Part shown: in pieces, positions 30,752 through 42,124 of the stretch
Layout: each line of letters opens with the position of its first letter
How positions within the stretch are numbered: the first letter of the stretch is position 1
Assembly (NCBI RefSeq): GCF_056746865.1
Contig: NZ_CM163382.1
DNA: 64,000 nt
Strand: one strand, 5' to 3'
Position numbers and translations under genes: made by a program
The notes under the pieces: generated by a model
The model's input: the letters and a program-made list of their open reading frames with translations, nothing else
What the model was told of the DNA's origin: nothing
The model's database searches: none

Positions 30752-31017
30752 TGCTCTCCCTGATTGCTTTAATGAAAAAGTCATATAAGTTGCCATGAAC
30801 AATGTTTATTCATCCTGGCGATGATAGTTATCACCATTATTCTTTATGGGTATAAAACTATCGGCGCAGCATCCTACCCGTTATCGATAAACGATGCAAA
30901 ACATCCCCTTACAATCCTGAAGGGGAATAATACAACTGACGAAAAAATGACAAATCCTTTTGCTGGTTAACCTGTGTACTGTCCTACACTTAATCTTTAA
31001 AAGATTGTGAGGGGCAT

Positions 31018-31635
31018 ATGATTAAGGTGTATGGCGTACCCGGATGGGGCTCTACAATCAGTGAGCTGATGCTAACACTGGCTGATATTCCTTATCAGTT
31101 CGTTGATGTCAGTGGTTTTGACCACGAGGGAACCTCACGCGAGTTATTGAAAACCCTGAACCCGTTGTGTCAGATTCCGACACTGGCGCTGGAAAATGAC
31201 GAGATTATGACGGAGACAGCGGCGATTGCATTGATGGTTCTCGATCGTCGCCCGGACCTTGCGCCACCGGTTGGGCGCGCCGAACGTCAGCAGTTTCAAC
31301 GGCTATTGGTCTGGCTGGTTGCTAATGTCTATCCAACATTCACTTTCGCCGATTACCCTGAGCGTTGGGCTCCTGACGCACCCGAACAGTTAAAGAATAA
31401 TGTTATTGAATATCGTAAATCGCTTTATATCTGGCTGAATTCACAATTGACCGCTGAACCTTATGCCTTTGGCGAGCAACTAACGCTGGTGGACTGTTAT
31501 CTCTGCACCATGCGCACATGGGGGCCGGGGCATGAATGGTTTCACGATAATGCGCAGAATATCAGCGCGATCGCTGAAGCTGTATGTCAGTTACCGAAAT
31601 TACAAGAAGTATTAAAAAGGAATGTCATTATTTAA
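31018..31635 (+). CDS. yncG: Glutathione S-transferase homolog
   Basis: 205-aa ORF with GST-like fold signature. Confidence 0.85.
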   Translation: MIKVYGVPGWGSTISELMLTLADIPYQFVDVSGFDHEGTSRELLKTLNPLCQIPTLALENDEIMTETAAIALMVLDRRPDLAPPVGRAERQQFQRLLVWLVANVYPTFTFADYPERWAPDAPEQLKNNVIEYRKSLYIWLNSQLTAEPYAFGEQLTLVDCYLCTMRTWGPGHEWFHDNAQNISAIAEAVCQLPKLQEVLKRNVII

Positions 31636-32174
31636 CAATAATGCCGGAGGTTAATGTTAATGAATCACTGGCGTAATTAACTGGATATCCATTTGTTTGC
31701 TATGAATAGTAATTAAAGTTGGTACAACTATTTATATGATTGATGTAATTTCGTTTTTTATATGAAATATCAATTTAATATAATCCGAAAATAAAACATC
31801 TTTTCGCATGTAGAGAAACATGTCGATATGATAGTGCAGTGCAGATCATGTCATCAGGGTAGGGCGGTAGCGTATTTAATCAGGGAAAGATTACGCAACG
31901 CTGCTTTTTTGTATTGAACGATTCGCATTTTATGTTTAAAAATTGCGATATTCCTTATTTCCTGAAGCTGTTTTTATTGCTTATACATGATCAAATACTC
32001 CTTACATAATTAAGGAGAACAAAATGGAACTTAATACACGCCAACAATTTGTATTACTTAAATAGACCAGTGAAGGTACGCATCAGAACATCCGGTGAAG
32101 TGATTAATATTTCGTTGAATATTTCTCCCGATTTTTGAAACCTGCTGCTGTAGAAATTCTGAACAGGAGGAATT

Positions 32175-32459
32175 ATGCCTTTAGCAGCCAAACTCACCGA
32201 CAAAGGCACCCAGCACGACGGTTATTACGAGACCGTCATCACCGCCGGGTCATCCACCGTCTTTATCGATGGTCTTCCCGCAGCCCGTCAGGGAGATCCG
32301 CTGACGCCGCATGCTAAACCGAAGCATCCCCCTCATCCCCGTAAAATCGCCAGAGGTTCTTCAACCGTCTTTATTGACGGCCTGCCCGCCGCCAGAAGCG
32401 GTGATGCTGTTGACTGCGGCGGCGTGGTTATTGGTGGCGGTACGGTAAATATAGGCTGA
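32175..32459 (+). CDS. PAAR-repeat protein (T6SS spike tip)
   Basis: 94-aa ORF with aggagg SD; duplicated GSSTVFIDGLPAAR(Q/S)GD motif. Confidence 0.75.
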   Translation: MPLAAKLTDKGTQHDGYYETVITAGSSTVFIDGLPAARQGDPLTPHAKPKHPPHPRKIARGSSTVFIDGLPAARSGDAVDCGGVVIGGGTVNIG

Positions 32460-32477
32460 TATGTCTGAGAGGTATTT

Positions 32478-34883
32478 ATGTCCTTAAAAGGTCTTCGCTT
32501 TACGCTGGAGGTTGACGGCCAGGAGCCGGACACCTTTGCAGTGGTGAATTTCAGGTTAATCCAGAACCAGTCATATCCGTTTGTGATGAGTGTGGATGTT
32601 GCCAGCGACTCTTTTATGCAGACGGCGGAGATGCTGCTGGAGAAGAAGGCGACACTGACCATCTGGCAGGGCGCAGTGGCGCAGCGTTATGTCACCGGCG
32701 TGGTGGCGGGTTTTGGCATGCAGGAGAATAACGGCTGGCAGATGCGTTATCACCTGCGTATTGAGCCGCCGTTATGGCGGTGCGGGCTGCGGCAGAACTT
32801 TCGTATCTTCCAGCAGCAGGATATCCGGACGATATCGGCCACGTTACTGAACGAGAACGGCGTCACGGAGTGGACGCCGCTGTTTTATGAGGACCATCCG
32901 GCGCGGGAGTTCTGTGTCCAGTACGGGGAGTCGGACCTGGCGTTTCTGTCCCGGCTATGGGCGGAGGAGGGTCTTTTCTTCTTTGAGCGGTTTGCGGCGG
33001 ACAGTCCGGAGCAGAAGCTGACGCTGTGCGACGATGTGGCGGGGCTGTCACAGGCGGGGGAGTTTCCGTTTAACCCGGACACATCGGCAGGAGCGGAGAC
33101 GGAGTGTGTCAGTATGTTCCGTTATGAGGCGCATGTCCGCCCGTCATCGGTGCAGAGCCAGGATTACACCTTTAAGGTGCCGGACTGGCCGGGGATGTAT
33201 GAGCAGCAGGGTGAGAACCTGAACGGACAGCTGGAGCAGTATGAGATATTTGATTATCCGGGAAGGTACAAGGATGAACAGCACGGCAAGGATTTCACGC
33301 TGTACCAGATGGAGAGCCTGCGCAGTGATGCGGAAAAGGCCACAGGGCAGAGTAATTCGCCGAAGCTGTGGCCGGGAACGCGGTTTATGCTGACGGGGCA
33401 TCCGCAGAAGATGCTGAACCGTGAATGGCAGGTGGTACAGAGCATACTGTCAGGAAACCAGCCGCAGGCGCTGCACGGCAGCCAGGGAAAGGGAACCACG
33501 CTGGGCAATCAGTTAGAGGTGATACCGGCGGACCGGACGTGGCGTCCACGGCTGCAAAACAAACCGAAGGTGGACGGGCCACAGAGCGCCATTGTCACCG
33601 GTCCTGCGGGAGAGGAAATCTTCTGCGACGAACACGGACGTGTGCGAGTGCAGTTTCACTGGGACAGGTATAACCCGGCAACGGAGGCGAGTTCATGCTG
33701 GGTGAGGGTGTCGCAGGCGTGGGCGGGGCCGGGGTTCGGTAACCTGGCGATACCACGGGTGGGTCAGGAGGTGATAGTGGACTTCCTGAACGGCGACCCG
33801 GACCAGCCGATAATCATGGGGCGGACGTACCATGAGGACAACCGTTCGCCGGGCGACCTGCCGGGAACGAAGACGCAGATGACCATCCGGTCAAAAACCT
33901 ATAAAGGAAGCGGATTTAACGAGCTGCGGTTTGAAGACGCCACCAGTAATGAGCAGGTGTATATCCATGCCCAGAAGAACATGGATACGGAGGTGCTCAA
34001 CGACCGGACAACGGATGTGAAACATGACCATACGGAAACCATCGGGAACGACCAGAAGATAACGGTGGTGAAGGGGCAGACGGTTCAGGTCGGGACCAGA
34101 AAAGAAGGGGGCCACGACCAGAGTATCACGGTGGCGAACGACCGGTGCATCACGGTACGTAATGACCAGACGCTGCAGGTGACGAATGACCGGACGGTGA
34201 GCGTGAGTAATGATGACGGCCTGTACGTCAGAAATGACCGTAAAGTGACGGTGGAAGGGAAGCAGGAGCATAAGACGACGGGGAACCATATCAGTCTGGT
34301 GGAGGGAAAGCACAGCCTGGTGGTGAAGGGGGACCTGGCGAGGAAGGTGAGTGGCGCGCTGGGGATAAAGGTGGACGGGGATATCGTGCTGGAGAGCAGC
34401 AGCCGGATAAGCCTGAAGGTGAGTGGCTCGTTTGTGGTCATCCATTCAGGGGGCGTGGACATCGTCGGGCCGAAAATCAATCTCAATAGCGGCGGTAGTC
34501 CGGGGACGCCGGTGCCGGCGCTGCAACCGGCGGTGCTGAAGACACTGGGGGATGAGAAGAGTGGTGATGGCAGTGATTCCGGAGAAGAAAATGAAGACTC
34601 TGGAGGGAACTGCGTGACCGGAAGTGGTGGTGATGATCGAGGTGACGATGAGGATGAACCTGAAAAATATACTCTCCAGTTCCATTTTACAGACGATGAC
34701 GGGATACCGTATTCAGAAACCCGCTACATTGCCTTCTTTGAGGATGGCACGCAGACCCGCGGAGAAACGGATGAAGAGGGGTATACAGAGCGTTTTTTTG
34801 TATCTAGCAAACATGAAATTAAAGTGAAGTTGTTATTTGCGAATGATGATTTTCTCTCAATGGAAGGACACTATGGACGATAA
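32478..34883 (+). CDS. vgrG: VgrG (type VI secretion spike protein) with C-terminal extension
   Basis: 801-aa ORF: gp27/gp5-like N-terminal part, beta-helix repeats (ITVANDRCITVRNDQTLQVTNDRTVSVSNDDGLYVRNDRKVTV), acidic Gly/Asp/Glu linker, then a ~70-aa C-terminal domain. Confidence 0.9.
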   Translation: MSLKGLRFTLEVDGQEPDTFAVVNFRLIQNQSYPFVMSVDVASDSFMQTAEMLLEKKATLTIWQGAVAQRYVTGVVAGFGMQENNGWQMRYHLRIEPPLWRCGLRQNFRIFQQQDIRTISATLLNENGVTEWTPLFYEDHPAREFCVQYGESDLAFLSRLWAEEGLFFFERFAADSPEQKLTLCDDVAGLSQAGEFPFNPDTSAGAETECVSMFRYEAHVRPSSVQSQDYTFKVPDWPGMYEQQGENLNGQLEQYEIFDYPGRYKDEQHGKDFTLYQMESLRSDAEKATGQSNSPKLWPGTRFMLTGHPQKMLNREWQVVQSILSGNQPQALHGSQGKGTTLGNQLEVIPADRTWRPRLQNKPKVDGPQSAIVTGPAGEEIFCDEHGRVRVQFHWDRYNPATEASSCWVRVSQAWAGPGFGNLAIPRVGQEVIVDFLNGDPDQPIIMGRTYHEDNRSPGDLPGTKTQMTIRSKTYKGSGFNELRFEDATSNEQVYIHAQKNMDTEVLNDRTTDVKHDHTETIGNDQKITVVKGQTVQVGTRKEGGHDQSITVANDRCITVRNDQTLQVTNDRTVSVSNDDGLYVRNDRKVTVEGKQEHKTTGNHISLVEGKHSLVVKGDLARKVSGALGIKVDGDIVLESSSRISLKVSGSFVVIHSGGVDIVGPKINLNSGGSPGTPVPALQPAVLKTLGDEKSGDGSDSGEENEDSGGNCVTGSGGDDRGDDEDEPEKYTLQFHFTDDDGIPYSETRYIAFFEDGTQTRGETDEEGYTERFFVSSKHEIKVKLLFANDDFLSMEGHYGR

Positions 34884-35664
34884 TAATCAAACTTCTGGAC
34901 AACCAAAGCCAGAGCCAGAAGAATGTGTGAAAGAGCAAAAAATAACTGATCATTTTAAAATAATGATTGATAAGGCTCGTAAGGCACAAAAGTTGGTTTT
35001 GATAAAAAGAGCAGATGATCTTTTGAGATGGGGAGCACAGGAGGAATATGATTTCAGTAAGATCTTTGGTGTTAAAGGAAATAAGGAGGTTAATATAAGA
35101 AAATATGGACATAATACAGGTAGGCGCATGAATGCTAGATTTCTTATGATGGATGGTGTGAGAAGATTAATGATTATAGCTAATGATTTAACAATGAGCA
35201 GTTTTATAAATTATACAGGTTGTAATGAATTTGCAGCATTCGTCAGCCCAAGTAAGGATATGCCCTATATAATTAACATAGGCGCAAAATTTGAGTATAG
35301 AGATGGCAAAAAAAATCCAGTAACGGGAAAGGATTCTCATGTTGCTACTTTATGTCATGAAATGTCTCATATTCAGTGGTATTATGGGGATAATAAAAAA
35401 GGTGGTATGTGGTCACAGGATTATACAACTACTGATAAATATTCAACGTGCAAAGAGGATGAAGTTTCATATGACGAACATATCCGTATTGCAACTAAAC
35501 TGATCTCTAAACAAAAAGATCAAATATTCGAGAATGCATATAACATAGAAAGATATTTTGAAATAAGATTAATTGAAAGTGAGATAGACTCGATTAATGA
35601 TGAAATATTAAGCAATTCAGTTAAGAAAAAAATAGCGGAATTAGAAAAAGCACTTCTCCATTAA
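34873..35664 (+). CDS. Candidate VgrG cargo effector with HExxH (zincin-like) motif
   Basis: ATG overlaps the vgrG stop (ATGGACGATAA); 263 aa; HEMSH at nt 35356-35370; GC content drops sharply at the vgrG stop. Confidence 0.55.
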   Translation: MDDNNQTSGQPKPEPEECVKEQKITDHFKIMIDKARKAQKLVLIKRADDLLRWGAQEEYDFSKIFGVKGNKEVNIRKYGHNTGRRMNARFLMMDGVRRLMIIANDLTMSSFINYTGCNEFAAFVSPSKDMPYIINIGAKFEYRDGKKNPVTGKDSHVATLCHEMSHIQWYYGDNKKGGMWSQDYTTTDKYSTCKEDEVSYDEHIRIATKLISKQKDQIFENAYNIERYFEIRLIESEIDSINDEILSNSVKKKIAELEKALLH

Positions 35665-35716
35665 CTAATAAGTCGAGAAATATATTAATGCTGCAAGCTA
35701 TAAAAAAATCATAATA

Positions 35717-36346
35717 ATGACAATCGTAAATATTATATTTTTCTATTCCTTTCAATCGACTGCGGATGAAATGGTTTTAATAAAAAAATACGGGTTTGGG
35801 CTTGAGAGAGATATCAAAGGAAGGCCATTAATTTATCCTATCGAAAATTATGATGAGTGTAAGAAAAAATGCAATCATATGAATTATATAGCGGATGTCA
35901 ATGCTCAATTAGCTATGAGTAAAAAAAACAACAGGATTTTTGCTAACATAACCTTTACTAACAATAGCTCTACCACGTATTTTTTTTCTAAATATTACCT
36001 ACCTATGAAAGTAAAAGATGGAAAAGGAGATGAATATGATGCGATATGCAAAAAACCATTCAGAATCAACTCTGGGAATATCACGTTGGACTACTTAGGT
36101 GGTTCATGTCCTTTTGAAATTAATACGAATCCTGAACGGTGGAATACTATTAAACCAGGTCGTAGTTTTTTGTTGAGTATAACCTTAAATGATATGTATG
36201 CCTTTATACCAGGAGATAATTATTATTTTATAAAATCATCTGGCTATAAATTTGTTAATGACAAGTGGTTTACACTCAAATCAATCAATAATATTTTTCT
36301 TTATTTTTTAAATTTAAAAATTAATTGTGCTGATGATTTTTTTTGA
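35717..36346 (+). CDS. Hypothetical protein, candidate immunity partner (ends at a T8 tract)
   Basis: 209-aa AT-rich ORF directly downstream of the effector candidate; stop lies in a T8 homopolymer; downstream ORF 36327-36509 is in the +1 frame. Confidence 0.4.
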   Translation: MTIVNIIFFYSFQSTADEMVLIKKYGFGLERDIKGRPLIYPIENYDECKKKCNHMNYIADVNAQLAMSKKNNRIFANITFTNNSSTTYFFSKYYLPMKVKDGKGDEYDAICKKPFRINSGNITLDYLGGSCPFEINTNPERWNTIKPGRSFLLSITLNDMYAFIPGDNYYFIKSSGYKFVNDKWFTLKSINNIFLYFLNLKINCADDFF

Positions 36347-36528
36347 TATTAATAATTTTACTACATGTGATAATTTGTTATTAGATGAAAAAAAATACTT
36401 TTTTATTAATCAGTTATGGGCAATTGAGGATGAAAAAAATTCTATTTACGTCACCCCTGATGAAATTTCTATAAGTATAGACGGCGATAACTTAAAGTTG
36501 CCATATTAGGAATCTGTGAAAGAACAAG

Positions 36529-37017
36529 GTGCGCCGCTTTTTTGTACTAAATAATTCGCATTTTAGTCACGGCAGAGAAGAAATCCATCTTCATATTGTT
36601 TGCGATGTCCCTGATGAACTTATTGATTTCACGTTTGAATGGAAAGGTCAGAAGAAATTATGCGTGGCAGTCTCCTTTTGGTCAATAATAGCAGAACAAA
36701 AGAAAGAGCCAGAAATGACGGTCAGATATTATATCAGTTCTGCTGATTTAACCGCAAAAAAGTTCGCCACAGCGATACGAAATCACTGGCACGTGGAGAA
36801 TAAGCTGCACTGGCGTCTGGACGTGGTAATGAACGAAGACGACTGCAAAATAAGAAGAGGAAACGCCGCAGAATTATTTTCAGGGATACGGCACATCGCT
36901 ATTAATATTTTAACGAATGATAAGGTATTCAAGGCAGGGTTAAGACGCAAGATGCGAAAAGCAGCTATGGACAGAGACTACCTCGCGTCAGTCCTTGCGG
37001 GGAGCGGGCTTTCGTAA
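36529..37017 (+). pseudogene. H-repeat-associated (ISAs1-family transposase) 3' remnant
   Basis: Translation ...[44 protein letters not shown]...[22 protein letters not shown] resembles the C-terminus of H-rpt proteins; no N-terminal half present. Confidence 0.7.
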
Positions 37018-37125
37018 TCTTGCCCTGGCGATCGAATAGCGCAGATGACGGTGCTCTAAATTTGAATCTAATAAGCCGGTGTTATTTTTCATCCACTATT
37101 AAAATCTTGACACAACGAGGCAACA

Positions 37126-37686
37126 ATGAAAAAAAGCAAAAAAATTAAAACAATGAACCATCAAAATAATAGCGGGATACAAAATCAACCAGACTATCAC
37201 ATCGAAATAGAAAGAAAAAATATGGTAAGATTGCTTGATGAACGTATTGATAAAGTTTACGGTTCATTGCTAGGACCAATGAAAAAGAAAAATATAGATA
37301 AAATACGTCATTTTACACTTGATGTAATGGTGTTTATTCTTGACACGAACCCTCGTGTTTGTAATAAATTATCCAGGGAAATAATATCTTTAGCGCAAAA
37401 TACCTTCATTGAAAAAAACGTTAATTTTTCAACTTTTAATAATGAACAGCATAGAATAAGGGAGTATATGAATGAAGGTGGTGGAATACGATGGTTTACA
37501 TGGGATAACCCCGAGATATCTTTTGTTCGTGCATCTTTTGGCCTTTTTGTCAAAATGGAAACAAAAGGTGATCATGAACATACACTAAGTGACACATTTC
37601 TTCAGATTGTTGAGTGTGTTAATTTAAATATAGGACTTATTGCAAAAGATGAACTGGTAAAAATCATCAATAAACACTTTATGTAA
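37126..37686 (+). CDS. Hypothetical protein (AT-rich orphan ORF)
   Basis: 186-aa ORF, ATG with acgagg SD, low GC; no motif recognised. Confidence 0.45.
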   Translation: MKKSKKIKTMNHQNNSGIQNQPDYHIEIERKNMVRLLDERIDKVYGSLLGPMKKKNIDKIRHFTLDVMVFILDTNPRVCNKLSREIISLAQNTFIEKNVNFSTFNNEQHRIREYMNEGGGIRWFTWDNPEISFVRASFGLFVKMETKGDHEHTLSDTFLQIVECVNLNIGLIAKDELVKIINKHFM

Positions 37687-38045
37687 AAATATACTTCTGT
37701 ATGAAGTTATAATAATACAGTGAAAATCATCAAATTATTAATTAATGATGCTCTTTGTTATTATTTACTTTTTACAATTGAATCAGGGGTTTTATTTTCT
37801 GTAGTAAAGTTGTATTTTTGCTAAAGGTGATAAAGTACAGGTGTTTATATTAAATTAGAACTCCCCTTAATTATCATAAATACAAAGAGGTGAAAACATG
37901 CGGGGGTGTTTTCGTTAAATAATACCATGGTGAATTAATAACATGCTATCAGTGATATACATATTTTCTCTAACAAAGTTTTAGTAAAATTACGCGTAGT
38001 AAGAAGATTCCGCCAAAGATTCCATATAATAATATTAAGGTTGTT

Positions 38046-38681
38046 ATGAATAAAGGTAATAGATTACAACAGTTAGAAGATGCGTGTCGTGATATTATTA
38101 AAATTAACATGTGGTATGAACTCCCCGATTATGTATTTTTTTCAATATCTGACACCATCGATGGGACGAGTGATGAATTCGCAATAAATGTGTATAAAAA
38201 TATCGATAAAAGTCTTCTTGAAATATTATTGCATCCATCTGTTTTACTGTCAGTTGTTGAGTCCTTACAAAGTAATACTATAGCTGAGTATATCGTGAAA
38301 TTGTCTGAAATAGAGATGAATTATGACGACTTGCTAATATCGGATGTTAAATCATGTCTTTTTATCAACTATGGATTCAATAACAGTGAATCGGTTGCGC
38401 TATTTAATAAGATTTACCGCGAATTAAAAGATATTGTAAAATCATCAAGAGTACATATAGATCATGAGAAAGATATTTTTGATGGCCTTAATCAAATCTT
38501 GGCTTTTTCCGATAATAATAAACATGAGTATTTTTTATATATAAAGGCATATTGGCTCAGTTTATACTTTTGTGAAATTTCACAGAACGTGAGAGAAAGA
38601 GATAAGTTGTCATTTTATTATAATGAATTTTCTGTCCGATTTCCTAATGTTGTCCTATATCCGTCATGCTACAAATTGTAA
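38046..38681 (+). CDS. Hypothetical protein (AT-rich orphan ORF)
   Basis: 211-aa ORF, ATG start, low GC; no motif recognised. Confidence 0.45.
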   Translation: MNKGNRLQQLEDACRDIIKINMWYELPDYVFFSISDTIDGTSDEFAINVYKNIDKSLLEILLHPSVLLSVVESLQSNTIAEYIVKLSEIEMNYDDLLISDVKSCLFINYGFNNSESVALFNKIYRELKDIVKSSRVHIDHEKDIFDGLNQILAFSDNNKHEYFLYIKAYWLSLYFCEISQNVRERDKLSFYYNEFSVRFPNVVLYPSCYKL

Positions 38682-38806
38682 GGCTTGGCACCTGAAATTC
38701 ATTGTTAATTCGAGACGCTTGATTGTCCACTATATCAAAACAGTCATACCTCGGAATTTTCTCGCATTAGTCCATACGGTATTCAATATTCGCAACTGTG
38801 CCCTGA

Positions 38807-39007
38807 AATAAAAAACTGCAAAACTGCTTTTTCTTGACCTGTCCCAATCACGCAAGACTACTTTTAGTAGAGACCTCCAGCTATGTCGATTTTAGTGCCG
38901 CCCGCGCATTTTATACAAAACAGGGCTTTATTAATGAAGCTATAATACGCAATTACTATGATGTTGGTGAGGATAAATTAATCTTCACTAAAAATATGCA
39001 ATCGTGA
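38807..39007 (+). pseudogene. 3' remnant of a GNAT acetyltransferase gene
   Basis: Open frame without start encodes ...YVDFSAARAFYTKQGFINEAIIRNYYDVGEDKLIFTKNMQS; A-x-x-FY-x-K-x-GF is the classic GNAT C-terminal motif. Confidence 0.4.
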
Positions 39008-39073
39008 GATAAAATATGCTTTTAACTCATATTGAAACATTGCTTAAGCAACTTGGTTGCTGCATATGATTCT

Positions 39074-39643
39074 TTAGCCCGCGGTGACTCGCTTGCCGCT
39101 GGTAACAAACGTGCCAGCACCTAAGTGATGTAGTTTATTGAGTTTATCATCATCAAACTGCCAGCGGCCTTCGACAAATACCCGTGCGTCTGCCGCTGCT
39201 GATACCACCTCGCCAAACAGCGTGTCGTATTTTTCTTGCGCGGAAGTCGCAGGTAGCAAGCGGCACTCCATCCACGCCAGACATTTTTCCTCGACCAGAG
39301 GCAAACCAAGTACCGGACCTTTCACTACTGGAATGCCGTAGCAATTAAATTTATCTTCTTCACGACCCGACACACTTCCCACCGCCCACGTCCAGTTAGT
39401 TGCTGCAACGCCCGGGATAACGATGCCAAATTTACCGTTACGTTCAATCAACTCCCTGGTCCATGTCGATTTATCTACCACGATCGCAACACGTGGCGGT
39501 TCAAACTCTACCGGCATCGACCAGGCCGCAGCCATCACATTACGTCGCTGTGATTTTTCATCAAAAGTTGTTATCAAAATAGTTGGGCCATGATTTAACA
39601 GACGGCTGGCATGGTGTAATTCGACAGGGATGAATCGGCTCAC
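39074..39643 (-). CDS. yddH: Flavin reductase-like domain protein
   Basis: 189-aa ORF with ATG start; flavin-reductase-like fold by sequence. Confidence 0.85.
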   Translation of the reverse strand: MSRFIPVELHHASRLLNHGPTILITTFDEKSQRRNVMAAAWSMPVEFEPPRVAIVVDKSTWTRELIERNGKFGIVIPGVAATNWTWAVGSVSGREEDKFNCYGIPVVKGPVLGLPLVEEKCLAWMECRLLPATSAQEKYDTLFGEVVSAAADARVFVEGRWQFDDDKLNKLHHLGAGTFVTSGKRVTAG

Positions 39644-39817
39644 GGTATCGCCTCGCTAAGAAGGGGGTTTTAAAAGCGTAGCTCGTAACGCTATAAGTAA
39701 CGAAATTAACGGGATTGGCGATTTGCGAACGTGATGCATGTCCGCGATCGCACAAAATAGCCGGTGCGGCGTCTATTCCAGGTTATAAGTTGAGAAAACC
39801 ACTAAGGGAAACGCCTG

Positions 39818-40663
39818 ATGACGCCCATTCTGAATCATTATTTTGCCCGTATTAACTGGTCGGGAGCTGCTGCGGTCAATATTGATACGCTGCGTGCATT
39901 GCACCTGAAACACAATTGCACCATTCCATTCGAAAACCTCGACGTTTTGCTGCCAAGGGAAATACAGCTTGATGATCAATCGCTGGAAGAGAAACTGGTG
40001 ACAGCCCGTCGTGGTGGTTACTGTTTTGAGCAGAATGGCGTGTTTGAGCGGGTGTTACGCGAGCTGGGGTTTAACGTTCGCAGCTTGTTAGGGCGCGTAG
40101 TGTTATCAAATCCGCCAGCATTACCGCCGCGCACCCATCGTTTGTTGTTGGTGGAACTGGAAGGGGAAAAATGGATTGCTGATGTCGGTTTCGGTGGACA
40201 GACGCTAACCGCGCCGATTCGTTTAGTTCCCGATCTCGTGCAGATCACGCCACACGGAGAGTATCGGTTGTTACAGGAGGGTGATGATTGGGTGTTGCAG
40301 TTTAATCATCATCAGCACTGGCAGTCGATGTACCGTTTTGATCTCTGCGAGCAGCAACAAAGCGATTATGTAATGGGCAATTTCTGGTCTGCGCACTGGC
40401 CGCAGTCGCATTTTCGCCATCATTTGCTGATGTGCCGCCATTTGCCGGACGGCGGCAAGCTGACACTGACCAATTTTCATTTTACCCATTATGAAAATGG
40501 GCACGCGGTGGAGCAGCGAAATCTACCAGATGTGGCGTCGTTATATGCCGTGATGCAGGAACAGTTTGGTCTGGGCGTAGATGATGCGAAACATGGCTTT
40601 ACTGTGGATGAGTTAGCGATGGTGATGGCGGCGTTTGATACGCACCCGGAGGCGGGAAAATAA
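39818..40663 (+). CDS. nhoA: Arylamine N-acetyltransferase (N-hydroxyarylamine O-acetyltransferase)
   Basis: 281-aa ORF; catalytic Cys in RGGYCFEQN context. Confidence 0.9.
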   Translation: MTPILNHYFARINWSGAAAVNIDTLRALHLKHNCTIPFENLDVLLPREIQLDDQSLEEKLVTARRGGYCFEQNGVFERVLRELGFNVRSLLGRVVLSNPPALPPRTHRLLLVELEGEKWIADVGFGGQTLTAPIRLVPDLVQITPHGEYRLLQEGDDWVLQFNHHQHWQSMYRFDLCEQQQSDYVMGNFWSAHWPQSHFRHHLLMCRHLPDGGKLTLTNFHFTHYENGHAVEQRNLPDVASLYAVMQEQFGLGVDDAKHGFTVDELAMVMAAFDTHPEAGK

Positions 40664-40743
40664 TTTATGTCAGGTTGCCGGATGCGGCGTAATGAACTGC
40701 ACCCCAAATGTTGGACATAATCTGACATCTGAAGGTGCAGTTT

Positions 40744-41265
40744 ATGAAACATTCATTTGAAGTAAAACTTGCCGCTGTAAATCATTACCTGGCTGGTCAT
40801 GCAGGCATCATTTCTACGGTAAAACTCTTTCAACTTTCTCACACCAGCCTCTCACACTGGATTAATCTTTTTCTTCTTCACGGTCCTCGGGCACTGGATT
40901 GCAGACACAAGCGTAGCTATTCTCCTGAAGATAAACTTTGCGTGGTTCTTTATGCTCTCGGGCATTCTGAGTCTCTACCCCGGGTAGCTGCCCGGTTTAA
41001 CATTCCCAGCCACAACACGGTTAAAAACTGGATAAAAGGCTACCGCAAATCTGGTAATGAGGCCTTTATCAGGCGCAGGAAGGAGAAAAGCATGACCCGT
41101 TCTGATGATACCCATGAAAACGAGGCAAACATGACGCCGGAAGAGATGAAGAATGAGCTGCGTTATCTTCGCGCAGAAAATGCATATCTGAAAGCCATGC
41201 AGGAGCATCTCCTGGAAAAAAAGCGCCAGGAGCTGGAGAAAAAACGAAAGTCATCCGGAGCCTGA
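40744..41265 (+). CDS. IS3-family transposase OrfA (HTH)
   Basis: ATG at 40744 with gaaggtg SD; ends shortly after the slippery heptamer A_AAA_AAG at 41217-41223. Confidence 0.8.
   Translation: MKHSFEVKLAAVNHYLAGHAGIISTVKLFQLSHTSLSHWINLFLLHGPRALDCRHKRSYSPEDKLCVVLYALGHSESLPRVAARFNIPSHNTVKNWIKGYRKSGNEAFIRRRKEKSMTRSDDTHENEANMTPEEMKNELRYLRAENAYLKAMQEHLLEKKRQELEKKRKSSGA

Positions 41266-41369: not shown

Positions 41370-42124
<755 letters not shown>

Follow-up and report, generated by a model that had tools for sequence, protein, structure and literature searches.

Two neighbouring genes in a 64,000-nt stretch of DNA (NCBI RefSeq assembly GCF_056746865.1, contig NZ_CM163382.1; the whole stretch is referred to as the window) are, judging from their sequences and the gene context of their relatives, most likely two orphan immunity genes, independent of each other, from polymorphic-toxin systems of the T6SS/Rhs kind (T6SS, type VI secretion system). 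The window is Escherichia coli chromosome, and its positions 37000–38900, which hold both open reading frames (ORFs), have 100% identical counterparts in many complete genomes, that of strain 042 among them. Homologs of either gene are located next to toxin genes, each family has its own kind of toxin partner, the cognate toxins are missing here, and both genes are under purifying selection. Binding of the toxins, expression in this strain and a present protective value are what we infer for the two proteins. The genes, named ORF1 and ORF2 in the following, are:

37126–37686, + strand: ORF1, ATG start, 186 aa; predicted orphan immunity gene, its partner being an Rhs C-terminal deaminase-like toxin
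38046–38681, + strand: ORF2, ATG start, 211 aa; predicted orphan immunity gene, its partners being T6SS EndoU RNase effectors

RefSeq labels both as "hypothetical protein". The initial annotation of this DNA, made from the sequence alone, had described two ORFs of 186 and 211 aa with ATG starts and Shine-Dalgarno (SD)-like sequences, and the ORF list and the sequence agree exactly with that description: a GAGG motif is found 7 nt before the ATG of ORF1 and an AAGG motif 6 nt before that of ORF2. The GC content is very low, as had also been remarked, with 0.305 for ORF1, 0.302 for ORF2 and 0.27 for the 359-nt spacer between them, compared to 0.56–0.60 for vgrG and ~0.50 for the yddH/nhoA flank.

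Low GC, the lack of family matches and the label "hypothetical protein" could all be cited in favour of spurious open frames in AT-rich DNA. When the region 37028–38848 was shuffled 2000 times and the longest ORF with an ATG start was scored, the mean length was 55 aa and the maximum 129 aa, and none of the 2000 shuffles reached 186 aa. The GC content of ORF1 is uneven over the three codon positions (0.41/0.26/0.25). Homologs with 53–72% identity are encoded in E. coli, Citrobacter, Pseudocitrobacter, Escherichia albertii and a contig labelled Shigella flexneri, and the alignments of the ORF1 and ORF2 families contain many invariant positions. The pairwise ratio of nonsynonymous to synonymous substitution rates (dN/dS) between species was 0.13–0.36 over both families, 0.12–0.36 being the range for ORF2, and below 1 in every comparison. 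ORF1 and ORF2 are therefore protein coding and under purifying selection. The initial annotation had named a lack of conservation in related genomes as the outcome that would point to spurious ORFs. Relatives do carry both, and the conservation across genera together with the dN/dS values refutes this reading, the probability of which we regard as practically nil.

No motif had been recognised in either protein from the sequence alone, and the profile searches likewise gave nothing credible. In Pfam, neither ORF had a match at E≤0.001, and ORF2 had none even at E≤10. NCBIfam gave no credible match for the ORFs (one at chance level, E 0.037; none for ORF2 at E≤1), PADLOC none for either at E≤1, and the sole PHROG match was weak (E 0.034) and to a family of unknown function. 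A search of positions 36400–39200 against Rfam revealed no RNA family, and a literature search by protein accessions found no paper on these proteins.

Neither protein has a transmembrane segment, the maximum Kyte-Doolittle mean over 19 residues being 1.2 and 1.5, and both have hydrophilic N-termini and no signal peptide. Both are thus predicted to be cytoplasmic, as expected for immunity to nucleic-acid-targeting toxins. The predicted isoelectric point of ORF2 is 4.9, versus 9.7 for the EndoU domain described below. A cytoplasmic location and an acidic protein facing a basic toxin are usual for the immunity proteins of such toxins.

Toxin partners of the ORF1 and ORF2 families

The initial annotation had suggested looking for homologs beside toxin C-terminal domains in other genomes, and such homologs were found for both ORFs. 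Identity to ORF1 is 72% for the homolog in E. coli drafts, 60% for that in Citrobacter portucalensis and 58% for a further one. The family is enterobacterial and very narrow; a hidden Markov model scan of 1.84 billion representative proteins returned one full-length member plus fragments. In C. portucalensis (L002; comparison loci are given by L numbers, homologous proteins by P numbers) the homolog P0006 begins 2 nt past the stop codon of a 1481-aa Rhs protein, itself encoded after VgrG and a DUF2169 protein. In the E. coli drafts L004/L005, P0002 begins 2 nt past a fragmentary orphan Rhs whose C-terminal domain is the same one at 80% identity, and in L003/L006 the homolog is preceded by a truncated, 89-aa remnant of that domain. 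The ORF1 homolog is accordingly located on the same strand and 2 nt 3' of the toxin C-terminus in L002, L003/L006 and L004/L005, which is the position of an immunity gene.

The C-terminal domain of these Rhs proteins is ~110 aa long, and its CAE and CxxC motifs are invariant. Its Pfam matches were all below threshold, with independent E-values of 0.0021 and 0.0077 for YwqJ-deaminase and of 0.014 and 0.04 for dCMP_cyt_deam_1, and a profile of the domain matched no deaminase in the PDB. Because of the invariant motifs and the weak YwqJ/dCMP profile matches we read the domain as a probable deaminase-fold toxin, resembling zinc-dependent nucleic-acid deaminases and with a putative activity of that kind. 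The ORF1 family was found only together with this CAE/CxxC deaminase-like C-terminus (three contexts), and no cross-association with EndoU was seen.

The structure model of ORF1 is all-alpha, with seven helices and a predicted local distance difference test score (pLDDT) of 79; confidence was reached by only one of the five models, from an alignment of 5 sequences. The all-alpha model would agree with a deaminase-like partner, and we treat it as a lead. A Foldseek search gave no match, nor was there sequence similarity to SsdAI, an immunity protein discussed below.

For ORF2, the identity of the homologs is 91% in E. coli, 63% in Pseudocitrobacter faecalis, ~60% in E. albertii and 53% on the contig with the label Shigella flexneri. 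The family amounts to ~20 clusters at 90% identity in a profile search, and all those with an organism name are from Enterobacteriaceae; the search gained only three further sequences, partial or shorter. Since homologs of either family are few, deeper alignments could not be built.

In L023, genes for VgrG, a DUF2169 protein and a PAAR-like protein are followed by one for a 388-aa effector ending in an EndoU_bacteria domain and then, after 16 nt, by the ORF2 homolog and an intact copy of the insertion sequence ISAs1. The order is the same in four Pseudocitrobacter loci (L007–L010), where the effector gene is split by a frameshift. The match to EndoU_bacteria (PF14436) covers nearly the whole Pfam model, with an independent E-value of 3.6e-15; by sequence, the domain matched nothing in the PDB at E<0.5. 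Fragments of EndoU are located immediately 5' of the ORF2 homolog in L016 (71% identity), L018 and L022, and degenerate EndoU remnants (39–44% identity) 5' of it in L019 and in E. albertii (L014/L015). The immunity-gene position, 16 nt past the EndoU effector or fragment, is found in L023, L007–L010, L016, L018 and L022. Counting the degenerate remnants, the ORF2 family occurs in seven contexts, only with EndoU, and no cross-association was seen here either.

The two families co-occur only at the yncG..yddH locus of E. coli and are found apart everywhere else. They therefore represent two independent immunity genes rather than a toxin/immunity pair or a two-gene cassette. The initial annotation, which had placed the ORFs among orphan toxin C-terminal/immunity material, was hence right in kind, since homologs of each are located directly 3' of toxin C-termini, and wrong about a toxin C-terminal part: neither ORF is a toxin, and the pair is immunity plus immunity, each for a different toxin.

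Two of the ORF2 contexts deserve a further remark. The EndoU effector is encoded by a single ORF in L023 (3382–4548) and by overlapping ORFs of 272 and 135 aa in L007–L010 (3235–4400); because of this split the toxin may be inactive in the latter loci, with the immunity gene still intact. In L016 (7578–7984), a 144-nt piece resembling the 3' region of the window's vgrG (33791–33934, 81%) abuts the EndoU fragment, and an ankyrin-repeat ORF and an AIDA-like ORF are located upstream. L016 is another eroded vgrG-effector locus.

Missing toxins and history of the locus

In the near-identical locus of strain 042 the RefSeq gene order is yncG, PAAR, TssI/VgrG, "peptidase M35", a hypothetical protein, an ISAs1 remnant, ORF1, ORF2, yddH and nhoA. 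The features surrounding the two ORFs in the window are:

37056–38848, strand not applicable: block with ORF1, ORF2 and the 359-nt spacer; blastn against L011 and L021
37074–37123, + strand: scar of the 3' end of the Rhs C-terminal toxin gene, with deletions of 10 nt and 1 nt; MAFFT, local alignment against shuffles, and blastn
36511–37027, + strand: ISAs1 (H-repeat) remnant; NCBIfam NF033564 and blastn against the intact ISAs1 of L003/L004
31878–32034, + strand: second ISAs1 left-end fragment; blastn against L003 8670–8825, 92% identity
38834–39007, + strand: C-terminal remnant of a GNAT acetyltransferase, forming the right boundary of the block; NCBIfam rimI-like, E 2.6e-4

A tblastn search of the 64-kb window with the Rhs C-terminal domain and the EndoU domain gave nothing at E≤10. 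Among 5426 complete E. coli genomes searched with blastn ("distant"), the Rhs C-terminal query was matched only via the shared Rhs core and the Pseudocitrobacter EndoU allele not at all, a search at the DNA level that would miss alleles below ~65–70% identity. With the cognate toxins absent from the window and undetected in this genome set, ORF1 and ORF2 can be called orphans not only locally but in complete E. coli genomes at large.

Inspection of the sequence directly before ORF1 revealed a trace of the former toxin. The ~50 nt at 37074–37123 align (MAFFT, with L004, L003 and L002) to the last codons of the E. coli gene for the Rhs C-terminal domain, which encode C-x-x-C-N-P-L-L-K. The local alignment score to the 3' end of the toxin gene in L004 was 17.3, compared to 7.9 ± 1.5 for shuffled sequences, with one of 3000 shuffles reaching that score; by blastn, homology to L003/L004 begins at 37103, 23 nt before the ATG of ORF1. 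From this scar we conclude that the toxin gene formerly preceded ORF1. In the DNA upstream of ORF2, the similarity to EndoU 3' ends was no better than that of shuffles; an EndoU 3' remnant hinted at by the MAFFT alignment was dropped because shuffled sequences scored as well. The ORF2 region is homologous to L023 from 17 nt ahead of the ATG, a point 4 nt before the stop codon of the effector, and only 4 of these nt fall inside the effector gene. A toxin/immunity module, as the initial annotation had it, is thus not what remains here: tblastn and alignment revealed no toxin coding sequence (CDS) or coding fragment, only the non-coding scar before ORF1.

The block was found in 238 of the 5426 complete genomes, always on the chromosome and in single copy. 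At least 80% of it is retained in 186 of these carriers, and 179 of the 186 are at least 99% identical. A search of plasmids returned a single 4.9-Mb record that is evidently a chromosome. At the yncG..yddH site we recognised three main haplotypes. Haplotype (a) is that of the window and is present in ~174 genomes; haplotype (b), represented by L020, has the vgrG-M35 genes, a different ISAs1 remnant and no ORF1-ORF2; and haplotype (c), represented by L011–L013 and L021, has no vgrG and carries small ORFs, ORF1 (93%), ORF2 (91%) and an intact gene for a 155-aa GNAT protein.

Comparison of the block with L011 and L021 by blastn gave 92.1–92.6% identity over 1794 nt, its left edge adjoining DNA that is non-homologous and its right edge a deletion of 464 bp. 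The flanks of haplotypes (a) and (c) are 93–96% identical, which is near the 92% of the block. The block has thus diverged about as far as its flanks, which suggests that it is an old resident of the site and not cargo of this vgrG island. The initial annotation had further regarded the ORFs as displaced to the distal end of the vgrG island. This part did not hold, as the block occupies the yncG..yddH site also in E. coli that lack vgrG there (92% identity), and displacement by this vgrG island is, on these alignments, improbable.

The position of the ORFs after an H-repeat transposase remnant, distal to vgrG, was on the other hand confirmed both by the NF033564 match and by the annotation of 042. 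The transposase ORF preceding ORF1 (36529–37017) matches NF033564 with E 7.5e-34 over profile positions 201–314 of 314. Within the ISAs1 remnant, 36518–36565 corresponds to the left end of the element and 36565–37027 (463 bp) to its right end (95% identity), with an internal deletion between them. A direct repeat (31878–31932 and 36511–36565, 76% identity), both copies of which are ISAs1 left ends, brackets ~4.6 kb with the PAAR-vgrG-M35-immunity module (32035–36517). This bracketing suggests insertion or rearrangement of the module via recombination between H-repeat copies. Intact ISAs1 copies are also located 3' of the toxin-linked homologs in L003–L005 and L023. H-repeats are classically associated with Rhs elements, and these placements agree with that.

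At the truncated GNAT gene, on the block's right edge, the window is short of 464 bp found in vgrG-less E. coli (L011 8799–9263), where the 155-aa gene is intact. A GNAT gene in matching position in L019 follows a TacA1-type antitoxin gene, and the GNAT protein may therefore be a TacT-like toxin. Between yncG and the ORF1 homolog, L011 and L021 contain more small AT-rich ORFs (e.g. L011 6181–6971; 108 aa, 128 aa and others) that have no NCBIfam match. These may be additional orphan immunity genes, in which case the site would be a small poly-immunity island.

Predicted function, alternatives and known systems

In the mechanism that we propose, each of the two small cytoplasmic proteins would occlude the active site of its cognate toxin domain by binding to it, and the producing cell would survive toxin delivered by neighbouring Citrobacter, Pseudocitrobacter, E. 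albertii or E. coli. Both toxin genes are gone from this E. coli locus, and the toxin-less block is left between the ISAs1 remnant and the truncated GNAT gene.

Several observations weigh against such a function. The alleles nearest to those of the window are not themselves toxin-linked, and the window alleles are 53–72% identical to the toxin-linked homologs; neutralisation of a toxin by either ORF is deduced from gene context. Neither single sequences nor family profiles matched a described immunity family or a PDB chain by sequence above chance level, the ORF2 model is all-alpha with low confidence (pLDDT 66) and generic fold matches only, and the deaminase assignment of the ORF1 partner is below Pfam significance. 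The promoter scan gave signals at or below the level of shuffled sequence, and no terminator was detected. ORF1 is frameshifted in the vgrG-less haplotype (L011–L013, L021), ORF2 is annotated as truncated in L021, and in ~50 genomes the block is reduced to its final 417 nt (window 38432–38848). The dN/dS of ORF2 against the E. coli allele of L011 is 0.50, above the values between species. Partial retention and frameshifts fit decay as well as they fit function.

Many of these observations would be accounted for if the genes were derived from immunity genes and are now functionless relics, hitch-hiking in a recombination and insertion-sequence hot spot, unexpressed or non-binding, and decaying. 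The lack of blastn matches to either cognate toxin in the complete E. coli genomes also speaks for this, and the near-identity of the full-length carriers means that the intactness of the genes may merely reflect recent clonal descent. On the other hand, the window and 042-type genomes have the two ORFs in intact form, no dN/dS value reaches 1, and both ORFs have kept their SD motifs. They are furthermore on the same strand as the PAAR-vgrG-M35 genes and downstream of them, so that read-through transcription is possible, and toxin-bearing relatives occur among the gut Enterobacteriaceae that E. coli meets. We consider decay to functionless relics, the main rival where function is concerned, possible though rather doubtful. 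A single functional two-gene cassette, be it a toxin-antitoxin system, an anti-phage defence or an effector with its immunity protein, had been the alternative of the initial annotation, there as an unrelated accessory cassette. The two genes are indeed adjacent, on the same strand and alike in AT-richness, and the 1.8-kb block is common to two E. coli haplotypes. Outside this locus, however, the families are found apart throughout, with ORF1 homologs lacking ORF2 in L002–L006 and ORF2 homologs lacking ORF1 in L007–L010, L014–L019, L022 and L023. Together with the 359-nt spacer, the negative PADLOC search, the absence of a credible PHROG match and the distinct toxin partner of each ORF elsewhere, this makes a cassette very improbable. 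An aminopeptidase function of ORF2 is suggested by names in NCBI and UniRef, which are attached to P0012, P0013, P0018 (UniRef), P0021, P0023, P0025 and RefSeq CDSs. This is hardly credible given that ORF2 has no Pfam or NCBIfam match at the thresholds above, that its best PDB match by sequence is a deoxyribose-phosphate aldolase (E 0.063) with no peptidase among the matches, that its all-alpha model shows no metal-binding or catalytic motif, and that the context of the family is consistently a toxin 3' end. The name has probably been passed on from a faulty annotation.

Our preferred reading thus remains that the two are orphan immunity genes independent of one another. A more far-reaching version, in which 042-type E. 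coli keep both genes as a maintained cross-species defence island against T6SS attack by gut Enterobacteriaceae and ORF1 represents a new SsdAI-like family, is tentative and we would not expect it to hold in full. If it were true, ORF1 would hint at a deaminase toxin, borne on Rhs and acting on DNA or RNA, that has yet to be described and could be a new base-editing enzyme.

Orphan rhs-CT/rhsI and cdiA-CT/cdiI modules of Enterobacteriaceae keep a fragment of the toxin C-terminus and part of the Rhs core (Poole et al. 2011, PMC3150448; Koskiniemi et al. 2014, PMC3967940). Like the orphan rhs-CT/rhsI modules, ORF1 and ORF2 are located distal to a vgrG/Rhs locus, are AT-rich relative to the core genome, are associated with an H-repeat (ISAs1) and have homologs directly 3' of polymorphic-toxin C-termini, with a toxin 3' scar before ORF1. 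Unlike them, the two genes are immunity-only with no toxin ORF remaining, the block is also present in strains without vgrG or Rhs at the site, and the families are undescribed and not in Pfam.

The partner of ORF1 recalls SsdA, which with its immunity protein SsdAI constitutes a T6SS ssDNA cytidine deaminase toxin/immunity pair of Pseudomonas syringae (PDB 7JTU; PMC7901873). It shares with SsdA the deaminase-type CAE and CxxC motifs and the location on a T6SS-linked Rhs protein, and ORF1 is close to SsdAI in size (186 versus 193 aa), its model, built from 5 sequences, being all-alpha. In contrast to that system, ORF1 had no Foldseek match and its partner is only weakly YwqJ/dCMP-like and at most a candidate for the SsdA family (BaDTF2). 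For Tox-EndoU, the recorded immunity families are Imm28, SUKH and Imm-SuFu (Zhang et al. 2012, PMC3482391). ORF2 homologs resemble these in being directly 3' of EndoU, and ORF2 is small, acidic and predicted to be cytoplasmic, but it has no profile match to them (no Pfam match at E≤10 and no PDB sequence match). The immunity families recorded by Zhang et al. for Tox-EndoU or YwqJ deaminases (PMC3482391) include neither the ORF1 nor the ORF2 family. The ORF2 family appears to be a separate and narrowly enterobacterial one.

Acquired interbacterial defence, or orphan immunity, islands are known from Bacteroidales and Vibrio cholerae. ORF1 and ORF2 are similar to these in being toxin-less, clustered and linked to mobile-element remnants, with the weapons carried by other strains or species. 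They differ in comprising only two genes, with no array driven by an integrase or recombinase, and in that protection is only predicted here. Orphan immunity genes are accordingly a familiar kind of feature, and it is the two protein families that are undescribed.

The gain is at the level of annotation and leaves the general understanding of such systems unchanged. Two hypothetical proteins, one of them misnamed "aminopeptidase" in RefSeq, become testable immunity assignments in a block present in ~3–4% of complete E. coli genomes, including that of the reference enteroaggregative strain 042. They add an E. coli case in which putative immunity genes have been retained and the toxins have not, a matter of relevance to resistance to T6SS attack by relatives, and they draw attention to an Rhs C-terminal domain outside the window that is compact and carries deaminase motifs.

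Other observations in the window

An IS3-family element is located just past nhoA in the window (orfA 40735–41265, orfB 41370–42092); there is none in 042, where nhoA is followed by yddE.

In 042, the gene following the M35 effector (35688–36509), presumably encoding its immunity protein, forms one CDS of 273 aa. The window's copy carries two homopolymer changes relative to 042 (A7 versus A8 and T8 versus T7, at 35701 and 36337), which leave the last 60 aa out of frame, and at least one other complete genome matches the window exactly over this gene. Phase variation, a sequencing error or a true pseudogene could each account for the frame change.

Over positions 31000–40700 the window differs from 042 in 31 places, and 17 of these are concentrated in ~120 nt of vgrG (33593–33710). 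This cluster resembles a recombination or gene-conversion patch, perhaps originating from a vgrG paralogue.

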